From Candidatus Heimdallarchaeota archaeon (lineage in GTDB: Archaea > Asgardarchaeota > Heimdallarchaeia > Hodarchaeales > Hodarchaeaceae), in assembly GCA_011364965.1 (NCBI GenBank), contig RDOB01000007.1:62335-126334 (forward strand): 64,000 nucleotides of DNA, read 5' to 3'. Of this stretch, positions 16,335 through 45,900 are shown piece after piece. Numbering within the stretch: position 1 is the stretch's first letter; each line of letters begins with the position of its first letter. Both the position numbers and the translations under genes were made by a program. Under the pieces are notes generated by a model. The model was not told the origin of the DNA, did not search any database, and saw only the letters and a list, made by a program, of their open reading frames with translations.

Positions 16335-16568
16335 ATGCAAATTACCATTGTTCAAGCCATTGGCGGCGGAGAAATAACTCTGGATTGTGAAAAAACAAAC
16401 TCAATTGCTGCGATTAAAGATCAAGTTGCCCGAGAGAAAAAAATTCCTGCTCGCTCCGTCATTTTAGTATTCCAAGGAAAACAATTAGATGAAAGTGAAA
16501 CATTGAAATCTGCTGGAATAGAAGATATGGACAAACTTTACATGATCACACGGACAACAGGAGGATAG
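16335..16568 (+). CDS. Ubiquitin-like modifier
   Basis: 77 aa, beta-grasp pattern LVFQGKQLD, exposed C-terminal TTGG. Confidence 0.92.
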   Translation: MQITIVQAIGGGEITLDCEKTNSIAAIKDQVAREKKIPARSVILVFQGKQLDESETLKSAGIEDMDKLYMITRTTGG

Positions 16569-16601
16569 ATTTTAAAATAGTTTTTTCTCGTCCTACTCCA
16601 T

Positions 16602-17597
16602 ATGAGCGGGAGATACCATAGACAACAATTAATTGATAAATGGGATCAAGAAAAGGTTACTGAAAGTACAGTAGCAATTATTGGGATGGGAGCTTTAGGT
16701 ACGGTCGCTGCTGCCTCACTAGCCATGGGTGGTGTGGGTCATTTAATTTTGGTTGATTTAGATACAGTTGAAATAAGTAATTTAAATCGGCAGTTATTCT
16801 ATCGAAGTACGGATGTAAATAAACCTAAAGTTGAAGTAAGTGCAAAAATTCTAGAGCAGATTAATCCTGATATTAAAATTACTCCGCTCAACATGCCAAT
16901 TGAGGAAGTTTCAACAGAAATTTTATCAAAATGCAACGTAATTGCTGCAGGTCTGGACACATTTCAAACTAGAAGATGGGTTAATTCCTTCGTTGTGTCT
17001 CACAACATTCCCTTAGTTTCTGGAGGAATGTATGGCTTCTATGGAAATATTCAGGTTATTATGCCAAAAGAAACAGCTTGCATAGAATGTCAAACACTCA
17101 TTCCTGAACATGAATTACAAAAGGCTTGCACACCATTCGGGGAGGTTCGAAAAGCAATTAGAGGGGAAGAGGAAGTAGATGCATATCAACCTGCTGTATC
17201 TAGCGTTTCGTTTGTTATTGGGGGTTTAATGGCTCAAGAAGTATTTAAAATAGTTTTAGGACTAAAACCTCTTTCTGAATACTTATTCTGGGATGGAGAT
17301 GCTGGAGTTTTTACTTCCTTGGCATTACAAAGGCGTGAAAATTGTATTATATGTTCAGATCATTATCAACTTCGCGAAACAATAATTCACTCCCCCTCAG
17401 ACCAAACCCTCCTAGATTTTGCCAATCAATTGCGCTACTCCTTTAATCTTGGTCCAAATATGCGAATTCTCTATAAAGCTAAAGAAATCGCTCTTACAAG
17501 TGATTACATGAATACAATTTTCCAATCTGGAGCAATTTTTCGTGTAGTTGACCCTTTACTCTCTTTCCCGGCCAAATTCAAAGTAATTTTGGATTAA
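16602..17597 (+). CDS. Ubiquitin-activating enzyme E1 (ThiF fold plus C-terminal UFD-like domain)
   Basis: GMGALG, DLDTVEISNLNRQ, CIEC and CIIC Zn site, KACT candidate catalytic Cys; directly after the ubiquitin gene. Confidence 0.9.
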   Translation: MSGRYHRQQLIDKWDQEKVTESTVAIIGMGALGTVAAASLAMGGVGHLILVDLDTVEISNLNRQLFYRSTDVNKPKVEVSAKILEQINPDIKITPLNMPIEEVSTEILSKCNVIAAGLDTFQTRRWVNSFVVSHNIPLVSGGMYGFYGNIQVIMPKETACIECQTLIPEHELQKACTPFGEVRKAIRGEEEVDAYQPAVSSVSFVIGGLMAQEVFKIVLGLKPLSEYLFWDGDAGVFTSLALQRRENCIICSDHYQLRETIIHSPSDQTLLDFANQLRYSFNLGPNMRILYKAKEIALTSDYMNTIFQSGAIFRVVDPLLSFPAKFKVILD

Positions 17598-40225: not shown

Positions 40226-40906
40226 TTAATCTAATTTTATTATATTCTTACGATGCACAGTTACGAATATTATTCCAGTACAAATTAAGAAAAATGGACT
40301 AAATGAGATCGAAACAGAATGATGTGATTGAAGATACTGATAAAATATCAAATCTTCAGTTCCACAATATAGAACTTCGAGTTTAACATAACTGCTACTT
40401 ACTTTGGCAGTTGTATACCATTGCAATTTAGCAGTAAATGTGCAATAAGCATGATTTGCAGCTGCAAAACTTTCATACGAATCCTCCCATACTTTCCCCT
40501 CTGTCATGGAAGTTATGGTTTCAAAATTAAAGGAAGAATTGAATGTTGAATTATCACCAATTTGTTGCTTAAAACAATAATAAGAGTTTGAATGAATCAC
40601 ATTATCGATATTATATACATAAGTAGCTAAGAAATGAAAAGTAACATTACTTTGGGCTTGGAATTCCTGAACATCAACAAAAATATACCCTGTTAAATTA
40701 TAAGGAAATAGATCCAAGATGCCGTGCCATTCGGATACTTTCAGCTCAATACCATCATAATCCGCGTTATTTAAGTTAAAAGCAAATAAAAAACTTTTTT
40801 CTATGGGGTTACGAGCTGAAGGGTAATTCTCGCTGTCACATGGTGATAATAGAAGAATTAAAACAAATAAACAACCAATTAATCCTTGAAATGAAACTTG
40901 TTTCAA
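40226..40906 (-). CDS. Exported, C-terminally membrane-anchored hypothetical protein
   Basis: N-terminal hydrophobic signal, beta-rich body, C-terminal TM followed by basic residues. Confidence 0.65.
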   Translation of the reverse strand: MKQVSFQGLIGCLFVLILLLSPCDSENYPSARNPIEKSFLFAFNLNNADYDGIELKVSEWHGILDLFPYNLTGYIFVDVQEFQAQSNVTFHFLATYVYNIDNVIHSNSYYCFKQQIGDNSTFNSSFNFETITSMTEGKVWEDSYESFAAANHAYCTFTAKLQWYTTAKVSSSYVKLEVLYCGTEDLIFYQYLQSHHSVSISFSPFFLICTGIIFVTVHRKNIIKLD

Positions 40907-41023
40907 ACTAATCCATATTATATTAAATATTATAACTTAAAAACCTTAGTAAGTAAGAGTATTCAATGAAAAACTGTACTCCCATAATTAAAAGCTAGAA
41001 AAAAATTAGTTTCTATACTTATG

Positions 41024-41431
41024 TCAAGCTTCCTCCCATGCCCAAACACCTACTTTTCGCCAACGGCAATACGCCCAAATCCAGGTTTGAATCATCAGAG
41101 CTGCATCGTAAGCAGTGAAAGAGAAATGCCAGTCTTTTTGTGGTCTTAAATAGCAAATTTCAGTATGGCCATATTCATCGGTACCATACACATGGTGAGT
41201 CTTCGCAGCTATTCGTGGTTTTGTAATCCAGGCCCTAGGAGGAGCGGTAGGATAGTTATGGGGAAATTCAATCAAGACATGAAAAGTACCACAGGCAAAG
41301 CTTCCAGTAGTGACATATTTCACCTTTACACAGATATTACCGTTTTCTAAACGATAAAAATCATCCCGAGTTAACCCAGGAAATACTCCTTGTAATTCAT
41401 GTAGTTCCTGTTCAACTGTACGATCATACAT
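41024..41431 (-). CDS. Prokaryotic-type E2/UBC-fold protein (copy 2)
   Basis: FPHNYPTAPP, HHVY...EICYL...DW, WIWAYCRW...GVW. Confidence 0.8.
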   Translation of the reverse strand: MYDRTVEQELHELQGVFPGLTRDDFYRLENGNICVKVKYVTTGSFACGTFHVLIEFPHNYPTAPPRAWITKPRIAAKTHHVYGTDEYGHTEICYLRPQKDWHFSFTAYDAALMIQTWIWAYCRWRKVGVWAWEEA

Positions 41432-41448
41432 TTTGATTCATCCAATTT

Positions 41449-41904
41449 TTATAGAAAATGGTTCCAGAATCCTGCTTCTGGAAAACCCCAAGAACCCGTT
41501 TTTGTCCAGCGACAGTATGTTTTGAGCCAAACCTCAACCATTTTTGCAGTTTCATACGAAGTATAGGATAAATGCCAGTCTTTTTTGGGACGTAAGTAGC
41601 ATATGAGGGCATGGCCTTCTTTATCCCATTCATACACATGAGGTGTTTTTTCGGGGATTTTAGGTTTTTGTACCCAAACCTTAGGAGCATTAATAGGATA
41701 ATTATATGGGTATTCAATAAGAACGTCAAAATAACCACATGCATATTTACCTGTGGTAATAAAGCTAATTTGAACGCAGTAATTACCATTTGCCAATTGC
41801 TGAAAGTCCTGCTCCTTAACACTGGGAAAAAGCTTTTGCAAGGGTTTCAATTCCCGATCTGAAATTCTTTGGCGTAATGACAAGTTTGAAGCTCCATAGC
41901 TCAT
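41449..41904 (-). CDS. Prokaryotic-type E2/UBC-fold protein (copy 1)
   Basis: YPYNYPINAP, PHVY...LICYL...DW, WLKTYCRW.KTGSW. Confidence 0.8.
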   Translation of the reverse strand: MSYGASNLSLRQRISDRELKPLQKLFPSVKEQDFQQLANGNYCVQISFITTGKYACGYFDVLIEYPYNYPINAPKVWVQKPKIPEKTPHVYEWDKEGHALICYLRPKKDWHLSYTSYETAKMVEVWLKTYCRWTKTGSWGFPEAGFWNHFL

Positions 41905-43163
41905 TAATCAGGATTGTTAATATCTGAAGAGAAATTAGGAACTGACGATGTGCTGTGAAAAGGACAGGTAGGATCAGTGGTCAAATCCTCATAATAATAA
42001 AGCTCAAGACCATCATACTTAATGGCAGTTTGATCTGAAGTTTTGATAGTACGATTATACCACATATAGAAGTTGTAAGGAAAATGATACAATCCATGGG
42101 GAATTCCTGTTAAAAGTAAATCCAAACAGAATTTTGCTAATAGTAAGGTTAAGTTATCCACATCTAATCCCAATCCTGGTTGGGCAAGCTGTTCTTGCAA
42201 AGTGCGGTCGTATGTAATTTTGTGTTCTAATTCGATAGTGGTCGGTATAGAGCTAGAACCAGTCTCAGGTTTGGCATAGACACAATGATAACAATAATCT
42301 CCTTTCCGCGGGTCAACCTTAAACATTAAACCTCCTTTTACTCCAGCAAATGTTCCTGCATATACTAGGGGAATGGCTAATTGATTGGTATGAACGAAAT
42401 CATTGATCGCATAATTGACATCGTGCTCTCCAGAAACAGCAGCGATTAAATCTATTCCTTGGAGTGACTCAAGGAAGAAATCAAAGTCTTTTTTGGTATG
42501 TAAAACGAACTTCTGTTCTATAGTTTCAATTTGAACATCAGGAATTCGAGCTAGGATATAATCTTTCACTGCTCGAGTTTTAAAGCGACCAAGTTGGGAC
42601 AGATCGCAAATATGACGAATAATATTGTGAGTCTCAAGCAAATCGTCGTCGATAAAGATAAAGTTTTTCACTCCAGACTTAGCAAGATATAATGCTAAAA
42701 GCGATCCTCCAGACCCCATACCAATGATAGCTACTTTTTTCTTCTTCAACTCTCCTAAGGGTGTTTCTTTTTGATCAATTCGGACAAATAAGCGATCTAA
42801 ATTCACAAATTCGAATTCAACTTCAGTATTACCTTCTGAGAGATAAAACCTGAATTTAAGATTGATAAAATCTTTAGTACTAGTTGCATGAAGAAAAGGA
42901 AAATTAAAAATCGATTGAAGCTTAGAAACATCAAGAGGAGAGTCCTCTAAAGTTAAGACACCGATCGATTGGGGAGATTGGACAGTAGTCAAGCCAGTAA
43001 CATGATAGAGAGTATAATCATCAAAATATCGGCCAGAAAGCCACAATGTTGAACTTTTAGCAATCTGTTTTCTTTTAACTTGATAATCATGTTTAAATGA
43101 CGGATAAACTAGAATTTTAAGAGGTTTAGCAAAGGTCAATTCAACCCCTCCATTATTTTCCAT
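41904..43163 (-). CDS. ThiF/E1-like adenylyltransferase with an extra N-terminal domain
   Basis: VAIIGMGSGGS, IDDDLLETHNIIRH, GRFKT, CYHC and CPFH Zn ligands. Confidence 0.88.
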   Translation of the reverse strand: MENNGGVELTFAKPLKILVYPSFKHDYQVKRKQIAKSSTLWLSGRYFDDYTLYHVTGLTTVQSPQSIGVLTLEDSPLDVSKLQSIFNFPFLHATSTKDFINLKFRFYLSEGNTEVEFEFVNLDRLFVRIDQKETPLGELKKKKVAIIGMGSGGSLLALYLAKSGVKNFIFIDDDLLETHNIIRHICDLSQLGRFKTRAVKDYILARIPDVQIETIEQKFVLHTKKDFDFFLESLQGIDLIAAVSGEHDVNYAINDFVHTNQLAIPLVYAGTFAGVKGGLMFKVDPRKGDYCYHCVYAKPETGSSSIPTTIELEHKITYDRTLQEQLAQPGLGLDVDNLTLLLAKFCLDLLLTGIPHGLYHFPYNFYMWYNRTIKTSDQTAIKYDGLELYYYEDLTTDPTCPFHSTSSVPNFSSDINNPD

Positions 43164-44101
43164 AAAGGTTCGGATAATAATTCCAAAACTTCACCTTCAA
43201 GAGAAGCTTTGAGTGAAAGTAAAAATGGATGGAGTAAATCCGGGTCTACCAGTAAATTTGCCGGATGTTTTTCAACAGTAAAGTTCCGAGACATATCAGA
43301 AGATGAGATATCTATGTATAATTGACCCTCAGGAAAATTAGACGGAAAAGAAAGAAGAACCAAAACATTCACAGAAAGTTCACTCCCCTCAACGATAATA
43401 GTAAATTTATAGGGGAATGAGATAATTTTTTCTCCCCGAGTAGATCCAGGAAACTCCTGAATGTCGTTTAAAGTAAAAGTAGTGTCAAATACTTCAATTA
43501 AAGCTTCTTTTATGGGAAGAAGTTGTTCAGGTAAGATTCCTATCGGTTTTAGCGGGGAAATCTCCATACCCGCGGACATAATTCTGATATTCGACACAGG
43601 AATCCGTAATGTTTCAAAATTAGCACTACTAGGTTCCGTTGCCAAAGCTTGGTCTCTTCGATATAATTCAATGATTACTTCAGGATCTGAATCTGGAAGA
43701 AAATCCACTATTAGGGCAAGAATTAGGTTCCTATGAGGATTCAACATAAAAAAATCACTAATTTCCCCATGATCCCTATGACTGGGCCCTCCATATCCAA
43801 GATGTTTGTGCCAATTCCCTAAATATAGTGTTGTTTCTTGTTCTAGGAGCTGTTTTGCATATTCGGGATCAATTTCGAAATACATATGTTCTCGAACAGC
43901 AAGATTGTCGGGTGGTATTTCCATCCTCTCAATGCAGATATCTAATCCCCCATTAATATTTCGAATGGTTCCAAATAGCATTCCTCCAGTTTCCCTTCCT
44001 ACCCATTTGGTTGCTTCTTCAATAATCTGGTCATAGATATCTTGACTTAAATATAGAAAAATACTGTCCTCTGGTTCAGGAAACATCAAAACTACCCTCA
44101 T
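43136..44101 (-). CDS. JAB/MPN+ metallopeptidase fused to an RWD/UEV-like domain
   Basis: ETGGMLFG and WHKHLGYGGPSHRD JAMM motif; C-terminal SFPSNFPEG E2-fold-like motif with no Cys. Confidence 0.85.
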   Translation of the reverse strand: MRVVLMFPEPEDSIFLYLSQDIYDQIIEEATKWVGRETGGMLFGTIRNINGGLDICIERMEIPPDNLAVREHMYFEIDPEYAKQLLEQETTLYLGNWHKHLGYGGPSHRDHGEISDFFMLNPHRNLILALIVDFLPDSDPEVIIELYRRDQALATEPSSANFETLRIPVSNIRIMSAGMEISPLKPIGILPEQLLPIKEALIEVFDTTFTLNDIQEFPGSTRGEKIISFPYKFTIIVEGSELSVNVLVLLSFPSNFPEGQLYIDISSSDMSRNFTVEKHPANLLVDPDLLHPFLLSLKASLEGEVLELLSEPLWKIMEGLN

Positions 44102-44139
44102 TGGTCTAGAGTGTATATCAAGGAAAGATAAGAAAGAAT

Positions 44140-44241
44140 CTAGTAATGCTTTGAGATTGGAACTGTATCTACATTCTTTTCAGCATCTTCAGTCGCATTT
44201 TCTTTTGTTTCAGTATCTACGCGTTTAACAGGTCGAGGCAT
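44140..44241 (-). CDS. 33-aa peptide MPRPVKRVDTETKENATEDAEKNVDTVPISKHY heading the JAB-E1-E2-E2 operon
   Basis: Read manually: ATG at 44241, TAG at 44142-44140, AGGAG SD 9 nt upstream, TATA-like TTTAATAAA near 44287-44295; below the ORF-track size cutoff. Confidence 0.65.
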   Translation of the reverse strand: MPRPVKRVDTETKENATEDAEKNVDTVPISKHY

Positions 44242-44393
44242 ACTTTTACACTCCTAAAAATTGCAGGTATACAAAAAAATTCTGAATTTATTAAACTTTA
44301 GATATGAGACGAGGTGATTGCAGAGAAATGAACGCAAAGGCCTCCATAATTTCAGCAGTTATGAGAAAAATGTTTCTAACGAGAGAAAAAAGT

Positions 44394-45900
44394 TTATACC
44401 AGCTTCTTGCGACTTCTGTAATTTAGAAGGATTATAAGAAGAATAAATATTAGAAGAAACAATATTCCCTCCAAAAAATAGAGAGGTTCCTCCGAGAAAG
44501 GAGGAATGATTGTAGGGGAACAAGAACAAAGGAAGAAAATATTTATACACGGAAAAGAATAAGAATTTTGAGCTTCTCCAGGAATTTGATAAGCAGAATC
44601 TATAATTCCATCATTATTATTATCAATTGCGATCCAGTCATCCCAGTAATTGCAATAAAAAGAGTTATTAGTACCATCATCATATCCCTGAACAGGGTTA
44701 CTCAAAAAAGCGTAGAAACAGATTATATTATTACTAGAAAGAGAATCAATAAATTTACCTGGATCAGTACTATTGACAATAATATTATCAGAAATTAGGT
44801 TTACGCTAGAGGAACGTAAAATTATCCCTTCATTCTTACTTGTATTAACAATGTTCTCTCTTAAAAGGCATTCATTAGAATTTAAGAGTTGAATACCCCT
44901 ATAAGTACACAAGAGAGAATTATAGGTGACATTGATTTGCGTGCAAAATAGAATCGTGACACCATAAGAATTACACAAACTCTGATTTGTAATTGCGATA
45001 TTCACACAATTTAATAGGACAATCTGCCCCATATTGGGTGGAACAGAAAGATTAGCTTACTCCAGCCAGAAAATGATTAGCTGACCATTAAAATAATTAT
45101 GACAAACTTCAAGCTGACGAATAAAGGAAAGATCGGAACCTAAGATCATAAATCCACTCTGAAGGAACTTATTATTCCGAATCGTATTATTTGCTGAAAG
45201 TGAAAGATAAAGCCCTAAAATGTCATTAAAAAGAAATGAATTGTTAGTAATCAAGTTATAATGGCATACTAGAAGGTTAAAACAACAATTACCACACCCT
45301 GATATTGTATTATTGATAAAAGAAAGATTAGATGCTAAGGTGGCACTTACACCAATATAAAAAGCCTCAGAAACTAAATTATCCATAATAGTAATATTAT
45401 ATCAAGGTCTTAGCTCAATCCCTACAAAACATTCAATGAAAGAATTATTGCAAATCAACGAATTATTGACCCCAATAAGGTTCACATCAGTGCTACTATA
45501 AGAGAGATCAAAATAATTAGAAGAAAGTCCACCATGAGTGCAATTCGCAAGATAGACCCCAGGATGTTCTCCAAAATAACACTGGAAGAAGTGAAAATAG
45601 ATATCCACATTCACCAAGGTTATCATATTGCCAGAACCGTCTGAAAAAGTTCAATCCTGAATAAGAATAGGAGCTTTAGCAGAACCATTACCTTACCAGC
45701 CTTCAATTTGCGCCATGGATATGAAATAATCATTACCATTGATAAATATGGTAGAATGAACTTGATAGGAAGAGGAGGAAGATTGAGTAAGGGTAGATCT
45801 TTTTAAAAAAGGAAAATATTGAGTTGAGAACGCTGAAGAATGGATAAGAGATAAAAAAAATGACAAGAACGAGAAAACAAGAGATATAGAAACGTTTCAT
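44394..45900 (-). pseudogene. Fragmented NosD/parallel beta-helix surface protein
   Basis: Consecutive fragments (44394-45032, 45057-45386, 45402-45626) with GI.L..S..N.I..N repeats, NYWDDW...DNNNDG and a C-terminal TM; a signal-peptide-like start at 45900; broken by stops and frameshifts. Confidence 0.75.

Follow-up and report, generated by a model that had tools for sequence, protein, structure and literature searches.

The window analysed here is a 64,000-nucleotide (nt) stretch of contig RDOB01000007.1, from a Candidatus Heimdallarchaeota archaeon of the order Hodarchaeales whose genome (2.97 Mb) is 87% complete. It carries an operon of five co-oriented genes at 44241-41024 of the minus strand (as are all features of the operon given below), and these genes code, in this order, for a short peptide, a JAB-type metalloprotease (the JAB protein), an E1-like adenylating enzyme and two E2-like proteins, E2a and E2b. 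Their limits follow the list of open reading frames (ORFs). The gene of the peptide (44140..44241, 33 amino acids, aa) comes first, followed by those of the JAB protein (43136-44101, 321 aa; Met6, at 44086, may be the true start), the E1 (41904-43163, 419 aa), E2a (41449..41904, 151 aa) and E2b (41024..41431, 135 aa). As a first-pass annotation of the window had stated, the gene of the JAB protein overlaps that of the E1 (the overlap is 28 nt), and base 41904 is common to the E1 stop codon (TAA, 41906-41904) and the ATG of E2a (41904-41902). The same annotation had reported no gene for a beta-grasp or GG-ending protein, and indeed neither a beta-grasp fold nor a GG end was found among the five products: their modelled domains are MPN and alpha/beta, and the E2s (135-151 aa) carry no extra domain. 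The first gene is our candidate for the modifier of a conjugation system, and the evidence for and against this reading is the subject of the present analysis.

The peptide and its family

The peptide of the window starts with MPRP and ends with TVPISKHY, the stop codon following immediately, and its gene is single-copy in this genome. In orthologous loci the identity to the proteins of the window was 44-51% for the JAB protein, 56-63% for the E1, 62-74% for E2a, 75-81% for E2b and 79-91% for the peptide, the best conserved of the five; full-length E1 orthologues in the same genus are 55-67% identical. At 22 of the 33 peptide codons the codon varies while the residue is fixed, and the proportions of synonymous (pS) and non-synonymous (pN) differences are 0.64 and 0.051 (pN/pS 0.08). 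Since the differences between orthologues are mostly synonymous, the peptide gene is a strongly constrained gene and not a chance ORF. This codon pattern indicates strong purifying selection on the peptide at the protein level.

The family was collected by profile searches of two large protein collections, which gave only 20 and 8 matches, and by inspection of the DNA that lies upstream of related JAB genes, which added 14 peptides from Nitrososphaeraceae, mostly overlooked by gene callers. Throughout the family the peptide begins with MPR followed by P or D, and carries the motif T-[VI]-P-x-x-x-H-[YF] near its C-terminus. It is 33 aa long in the window and 33-59 aa in relatives, and contains several lysines, of which K6 is nearly invariant. 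The motif is followed by 0-14 residues that are unrelated between members: Hodarchaeales peptides usually stop right after the Tyr, some orthologues adding S, RN or GN, and the longer forms carry 2-14 such residues. Ubiquitin-like precursors that a protease trims to free the reactive end show this pattern, a conserved C-terminal motif and then a tail that can be dispensed with. The same pattern of precursor trimming has been demonstrated for BubAB, which is matured by the JAB domain of BubCD (PMC11601596).

A structure prediction for the complex of E1, peptide and ATP scored 0.13 against a mark of 0.32, and provides no evidence either way. A search for sequencing runs listed DNA runs (sediment, mangrove, estuary and soil) and no RNA run.

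The JAB protein, the E1 and the E2s

The JAB protein matched Prok-JAB of Pfam (1.5e-5) and JAB models of PADLOC (down to 1.2e-8). Its N-terminal part (aa 1-180; 43562..44101) was assigned to the JAB/MPN+ metalloprotease domain from these matches, from the JAMM residues and from an AlphaFold2 model of the protein, which has a mean predicted local distance difference test score (pLDDT) of 87. The JAMM residues E37, H98, H100, S107 and D110 are invariant across 41 homologues. In structural alignments with VIA the model was closest to JAMM1 of P. furiosus (Z 15.1, root mean square deviation 2.0 over 125 residues), and it gave Z 15.0 with Cap3 (chain 9ild_A, VIA) and Z 13.6 with a bacterial deubiquitinase of ubiquitin-like proteins (Ubls; 8tyy). 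It also aligned with BRCC36, Rpn11 and the Caldiarchaeum Rpn11 homologue, and Foldseek matched it to Rpn11, BRCC36, AMSH and CSN5.

The C-terminal domain of the JAB protein (aa 185-321; 43136..43549) is of the alpha/beta type and consists of a helix, five strands and a long helix; it is confidently modelled, free of cysteines, and carries a conserved SFPxxFP motif. The first-pass annotation had called it RWD. The topology is compatible with this name, but the assignment is not established: the fold matches obtained with VIA-align were weak (best Z 6.6; Z 5.2 for the UEV-like domain of VPS37A), those at Z 5-6.6 include unrelated small alpha/beta proteins, and comparison with the E2 profile by hhalign gave a probability of 2%. 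No Pfam family matched the domain, and a search of the protein Atlas yielded no usable lead. It may at most be UBC/RWD-like, a weak assignment that neither the topology nor the FPxxFP motif contradicts.

The E1 matched ThiF of Pfam over aa 137-302 (4.5e-25) and the CBASS (antiphage signalling system based on cyclic oligonucleotides) E1-E2 models of PADLOC (down to 8.6e-29). With these matches and the invariant JAMM residues, the intact JAMM peptidase and the ThiF/E1 adenylase of the first-pass annotation are both confirmed. In front of the adenylation domain lies an N-terminal domain (aa 1-133; 42765..43163), modelled by AlphaFold2 with a pLDDT of 83, whose best fold matches are inactive MPN partners (KIAA0157, Z 12.2; Rpn8, Z 11.2). 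Lower matches were obtained with BubCD (Z 9.1) and Cap3 (Z 9.0), and the N-terminal domain of ATG7 and the Cap2 linker reached only Z 5.5-6.7. On the evidence of the model, this N-terminus has an MPN fold of the MPN-minus type, or pseudo-MPN. The JAMM Glu, the HxH and the SxxD residues are all missing from its alignment, so the domain should be catalytically dead. Comparison of its profile with that of the JAB protein by hhalign revealed no sequence relationship between the two (probability 0.4%).

The adenylation domain (aa 134-419; 41904..42764), delimited by the ThiF match and the conserved residues, retains the GxGSGG loop, N180, R183, K195 and an acidic residue at 246; N180 and R183 align with the NxxR motif of the canonical E1 of the window. 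It also has a zinc site, CYHC...CPF(H/C). Loss of the canonical Mg-binding Asp was suspected, since the alignment with Cap2 puts an Ala at that place, and was rejected: E or D at 246 (SGEH/TGDH/TGDN) is conserved in all clades, 1-4 positions off the Cap2-aligned Ala depending on the alignment. No conserved cysteine was found in the crossover region, between the CYHC zinc motif and the invariant PGLG, in any of the clades aligned. In this cysteine-free crossover, which was placed by sequence, Y318 and R320 are invariant in the Hodarchaeales, Nitrososphaeraceae and metagenomic clades. A phmmer search of the Protein Data Bank (PDB) with the C-terminal half of the E1 returned nothing useful for placing the crossover loop.

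When the profile of the adenylation domain was compared with the PDB, the closest entries were Cap2 (3.5e-15), MccB (2.4e-12) and PaaA (8.9e-12), followed by ThiF (1.3e-10), MoeB (1.6e-8), UBA5 (1.7e-8) and, at 7.7e-4, BubCD. For the three nearest solved adenylation domains the substrates are short peptides or linear peptide termini, and not proteins of the beta-grasp fold; MccB and PaaA act on short ribosomal peptides. Cap2 adenylates the disordered tail of a CD-NTase, which ends in ...RFA in E. cloacae (10.1101/2022.03.31.486616). There is also precedent for a cysteine-less E1 that passes its modifier to an E2: the Bub E1s are cysteine-less and need an invariant Tyr of the crossover loop (Y370 or Y342) for conjugation (PMC11601596), and Cap2 can work in vitro without its E1 cysteine (10.1101/2022.03.31.486616).

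E2a and E2b are paralogues that share 50% identity. Both matched the E2 models of PADLOC (E2a 7.5e-9, E2b 1.5e-9) and, weakly, UQ_con of Pfam. H89 and C102 are kept in both paralogues and in all orthologues; in the profile H89 is invariant and C102 nearly so. Other retained motifs are PH(V/I)(Y/F/H), the Cys 13 residues further on (ICY), a Pro-rich YPxxxP and a KDW after the Cys. The E2 profile matches many solved UBCs, and its PHVY...ICY aligns with HPHVY...IC of UBE2W. The PADLOC and UBC matches support the earlier description of two Cys-bearing E2-fold proteins, and membership of E2a and E2b in the UBC/E2 superfamily is supported by these profile comparisons. E2a has in addition a conserved aromatic C-terminal tail of the PEAGFW type. 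Compared with the single E2s of other clades, E2b scores 94-122 bits and E2a 62-92 bits; E2b being nearer to them, E2a is a duplicate specific to the Hodarchaeales lineage, and by the same scores E2b is the counterpart of the single E2, the ancestral copy. In a metagenomic subfamily with long peptides (L018:6494-7615 and L027:9535-10575) the single E2 is fused to a Pro/Asn-rich low-complexity linker and a hydrophobic C-terminal region, which probably forms several membrane helices and suggests a membrane-anchored E2.

Distribution, neighbourhood and control signals

A tblastn search found the order peptide, JAB protein, E1, E2a, E2b at every Hodarchaeales locus that reaches far enough upstream. 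Because the gene order recurs at every orthologous locus examined, the arrangement of the cassette is not due to chance. In a survey of 400 Asgard genomes (cut-off E <= 1e-15) the JAB protein was found in 13 of the 22 genomes of one Hodarchaeales genus and in 0/378 of the others, where it must be called not found, and not absent, since many of these genomes are incomplete.

A cassette with a single E2 (peptide, JAB protein, E1 and one E2) was present in at least 14 Nitrososphaeraceae genomes of a species-representative genome scan. At these loci (L054-L068, e.g. L061:3733-6570), which have 25-31% G+C, a peptide gene of ~52 codons lies at the start of the JAB gene and, in 13 of the 14 loci, overlaps it by 4-11 nt. 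Its product starts with MPRD and carries TIPNIKHF, followed by 2-6 variable residues. The same four genes occur on several low-GC metagenome contigs, and the peptide also comes first in distant homologues with ~46% E1 identity. The homologous operons, checked for a Ubl or a CD-NTase gene, carried neither, and the peptide was always present. That the upstream peptide is the modifier, as the first-pass annotation had proposed, thus has strong comparative support, and it is from such comparisons that we infer it.

When the flanks of the loci were compared in three clades, no Ubl, CD-NTase, effector or other gene was common to them beyond the cassette, and no conserved exporter or transporter, immunity or tailoring gene lay beside it. 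Since the flanks share nothing else across the loci compared, the cassette behaves as a self-contained and patchily distributed module. The accessory status suggested by the first-pass annotation fits the patchy distribution and the flanks that differ between species, but the neighbours of the Hodarchaeales operon are metabolic genes and not defence islands. An antiviral role, which that annotation mentioned for related modules, finds no support in the Hodarchaeales lineage, the neighbours being ordinary metabolic genes; some distant homologues adjoin TIR-NACHT, bacHORMA plus AAA, or transposase genes. One more distant cassette (L019:1513-4898) encodes a two-domain JAB protein, an E1 and an E2, then an 86-aa zinc-ribbon protein with an MPKP start, two CxxC pairs and a YY end; a bacHORMA_2 gene and an AAA gene adjoin it on the other strand.

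Upstream of the operon, ~45-60 nt from the ATG of the peptide gene, lies the A/T-rich box TAAAGnTTAATAAAT (44286..44300). The box is near-identical and equally distant in nine orthologous loci, and the sequence between box and ATG varies; it may represent an archaeal promoter of the TATA/BRE (transcription factor B recognition element) type. An AGGAG motif resembling a ribosome-binding site (44251..44255) lies 10 nt ahead of the peptide start codon, and AGGAG or GGAG is found at the same spot in the orthologues. A T7 tract (40999..41005), ~20 nt past the stop codon of E2b, is a candidate archaeal oligo-T terminator. The conserved upstream box and AGGAG, with the T7 tract after E2b, would fit a single transcription unit. 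No RNA family of Rfam matched within 40800-44600, and the G+C content of the operon resembles that of the remainder of the window.

Three further sets of ORFs lie in or next to the operon. Downstream of E2b, a 226-aa ORF (40226-40906, minus strand) with an N-terminal hydrophobic segment, a C-terminal hydrophobic tail and no Pfam match is placed outside the cassette, since it is missing from orthologous loci. Upstream, two adjoining Asn/Ile/Cys-rich ORFs of 212 and 109 aa (44394-45386, minus strand), which the first-pass annotation took for a decayed surface-protein gene, have one weak relative (28% identity) near the operon of locus L025. Finally, an 83-aa ORF antisense to E2a (41611-41862, plus strand) is also open in L022 and L023 (47-54% identity), and most likely owes this to the conserved coding sequence of E2a.

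Relation to known systems and a proposed pathway

Prokaryotic operons with E1, E2 and JAB genes have been sorted into classes 6a-6e by Iyer et al. (PMC1779556), type II CBASS with Cap2 and Cap3 being class 6b. The cassette shares with type II CBASS its closest solved adenylation relative, Cap2, E2s that match CBASS E2 models, a Cap3-like JAB protein with intact JAMM residues, and a presumed substrate that is a linear C-terminus and not a beta-grasp protein. Unlike CBASS, it has no CD-NTase and no effector, and its presumed modifier is a free 33-aa peptide. Its E1 and E2 are separate proteins, and the E1 lacks a crossover cysteine and has an MPN domain where Cap2 has an E2 and a linker. The E2 of Cap2 is without the His, without the Pro-rich motif and without the Trp that follows the Cys (10.1101/2022.03.31.486616), whereas the cassette E2s keep all three.

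With type I Bub (class 6E.1; BubAB, BubCD and BubE) the cassette has in common an MPN/JAB domain fused N-terminally to an E1 of the homodimer type, and a cysteine-less crossover with an invariant Tyr, Tyr318 of the cassette being placed by sequence only. In Bub the peptidase matures the modifier (PMC11601596), the role that we propose for the JAB protein. Class 6e also lists an inactive E2/RWD domain (PMC1779556), to which the cysteine-free, possibly UBC/RWD-like module of the JAB protein may correspond. In contrast to Bub, the MPN domain fused to the cassette E1 is dead and the active JAB has a gene of its own, Cys takes the place of Ser in the E2s, there is no beta-grasp Ubl, and DUF6527/BubE was found neither among the Pfam matches nor among the conserved cassette genes. 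The sequence relationship between BubCD and the cassette E1 is weak (7.7e-4).

Bil (class 6C) and the eukaryote-like systems of Caldiarchaeum and Asgard archaea resemble the cassette in having an E1, an E2 and a JAB or Rpn11-type protease as a set for conjugation and deconjugation. They differ from it in that their modifier is a beta-grasp protein ending in Gly and their E1 has a catalytic cysteine. Set against Bil, the cassette lacks a Ubl and a multidomain E1, its own E1 having a single ThiF domain and an MPN N-terminus; the eukaryote-like archaeal sets add a RING E3, and the GG-ended ubiquitin with its cognate set is absent from the cassette. The pathways of microcin C7 (MccB/MccA) and pantocin (PaaA) also pair an E1-type adenylase with a short ribosomal peptide as its substrate; they are without E2 and JAB, have an N-terminal peptide clamp or a RiPP (ribosomally synthesized and post-translationally modified peptide) recognition element (RRE), and make antibiotics, not conjugates. 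Pup is a short, probably disordered, non-beta-grasp peptide tag, and its likeness to the cassette peptide is by analogy only; its ligase, the glutamine-synthetase-like PafA, works through a side-chain carboxylate, in place of an E1 and E2 working through the C-terminal one. The inactive-type domain of the E1 and the active JAB protein of the same operon recall the MPN-plus/MPN-minus pairs Rpn11-Rpn8, CSN5-CSN6 and BRCC36-KIAA0157. In the cassette, however, the pseudo-MPN domain and the E1 form a fusion that is not known from the eukaryotic pairs, and a heterodimer would be our reading of the operon.

We conclude that: i) the cassette fails the defining features of CBASS, Bub and Bil, and fits none of them in full, and ii) it brings together an adenylation core like that of Cap2, an MPN-E1 layout with crossover Tyr that is like that of Bub, comparatively canonical Cys-E2s and a short peptide. 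Full-text searches of the literature found no description of this operon or of the peptide. Single ORFs of ~1170 aa that match the E1 and then the JAB profile, found on proteobacterial and planctomycete contigs (L069-L071, L073 and L074), resemble the E2-E1-JAB triple fusions of class 6a.

The gene content, the catalytic residues, two domain folds, the co-conservation of the genes and the purifying selection on the peptide are shown by the analysis. On this basis we lean, by a little, towards a self-contained E1/E2 conjugation system in which the short, non-beta-grasp peptide is the modifier; it is the simplest model that uses every part of the cassette. The pathway set out below, with its chemical steps, the docking of the MPN domain and the existence of targets, is a proposal. 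Translation of the first gene would give the peptide, 33 aa here and 33-59 aa in relatives. The JAB protease would trim any tail beyond H-[Y/F] and thereby expose an aromatic C-terminus, the gene of the window already ending at Tyr33. The E1 would then adenylate the C-terminal carboxylate of the peptide. Since the E1 has no crossover-loop cysteine, we suggest that the acyl-adenylate is attacked directly by the E2 cysteine or is relayed as an oxyester on the invariant Tyr318; an oxyester on the crossover Tyr has been shown for Bub E1s (PMC11601596). E2b and E2a would hold the peptide as a Cys102 thioester and hand it over to a target amine, and the JAB protease would also reverse the conjugates. 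The dead MPN domain of the E1 probably serves as docking site for the active JAB protein, the two forming an MPN-minus/MPN-plus pair, and would so keep protease and E1 together; in BubCD the docking of the JAB domain on the E1 is rigid (PMC11601596). For the wider claim of an unrecognised class of modifier, i.e., peptides of ~33-50 residues without a beta-grasp fold, with a His-Tyr or His-Phe end, matured by a JAB protease and attached by E1 and E2, the E1 acting through a Tyr or with no covalent intermediate, we regard the case for and against as evenly balanced.

Several points weigh against the peptide as modifier. Its length and its middle region vary by clade. The peptide of the window has no tail, so that maturation by the JAB protein would not be needed here. 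The bulky aromatic C-terminus is unlike the Gly or Ala ends of known E1 substrates, and the model gives no role to the invariant N-terminal MPRP and no reason for two active E2s. Translation, adenylation and conjugation of the peptide we infer from sequence. In addition, the cassette E1 could in principle charge the canonical ubiquitin of the window, a 77-aa protein (16335-16568, plus strand) with GG directly before the stop codon.

This last point leads to an explanation that we hold to be unlikely, though deserving of serious attention, namely that the E1 and E2s act on a substrate encoded elsewhere, either canonical ubiquitin or the C-terminal tail of another protein, and that the peptide is a regulator, adaptor, inhibitor or assembly factor. 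Canonical ubiquitin is available in the same genome, and E1s of the Cap2 family can use the tail of a full-size protein; the aromatic end of the peptide is atypical for an E1 substrate, and the invariant MPRP would suit a binding motif. Ubiquitin, however, has its own E1: a 331-aa E1-like gene follows immediately, and the pair (16335-17597, plus strand) is a eukaryote-like system. The ubiquitin system and the peptide cassette are therefore separate, in agreement with the first-pass annotation, which had set a tagging system apart from the eukaryote-like set. Moreover, in none of three clades is a gene for a candidate substrate linked to the cassette, and if the peptide were merely a binding partner, a conserved C-terminal motif with a variable tail would be difficult to account for.

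A RiPP-like pathway seems improbable to us. Here the E1 would activate the C-terminus of the peptide for amidation, cyclisation or attachment of a nucleotide, the JAB protein would serve as maturation peptidase, and the pathway would yield a small molecule or a free modified peptide, not a protein tag. The rank of MccB and PaaA as second and third closest solved adenylation relatives points this way, as does a short co-encoded peptide with conserved ends, which is typical of RiPP precursors; two Cys-bearing E2s fit such a pathway poorly, and we know of none of the MccB/PaaA type that has them. The N-terminus of the E1 has, besides, the MPN fold and not that of a peptide clamp or RRE, and no conserved exporter, immunity or tailoring gene adjoins the cassette. 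Least of all do we expect the peptide to be an acceptor or scaffold, with the modification on, for example, its lysines or its N-terminal proline, or a decoy substrate holding the E2s in the discharged state, with something else as donor: its several lysines, K6 among them, and its invariant N-terminus would suit this role, but the conserved C-terminal H-[Y/F] with variable tails is left unexplained and the cassette has no donor gene.

To our knowledge, every known tag driven by E1 and E2 is a beta-grasp protein, except for the CD-NTase tail of CBASS. If the reading of the peptide as modifier is correct, a free short peptide tag would show the E1-E2-deubiquitinase machinery to be independent of the ubiquitin fold, and conjugation of the peptide, if shown, would define a new modifier class. 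The hypothesis lends itself to a direct test: modified lysines are expected to keep a His-Tyr remnant after trypsin. Cultured ammonia oxidisers may give access to the Nitrososphaeraceae version. In the dead-MPN E1 and the active JAB protein, prokaryotes may have a counterpart of the eukaryotic MPN-plus/MPN-minus pairs. In recent phylogenies no lineage is placed closer to eukaryotes than Hodarchaeales; they would have, beside canonical ubiquitin, a second conjugation system, one that would also be present in the ammonia-oxidising Nitrososphaeraceae.

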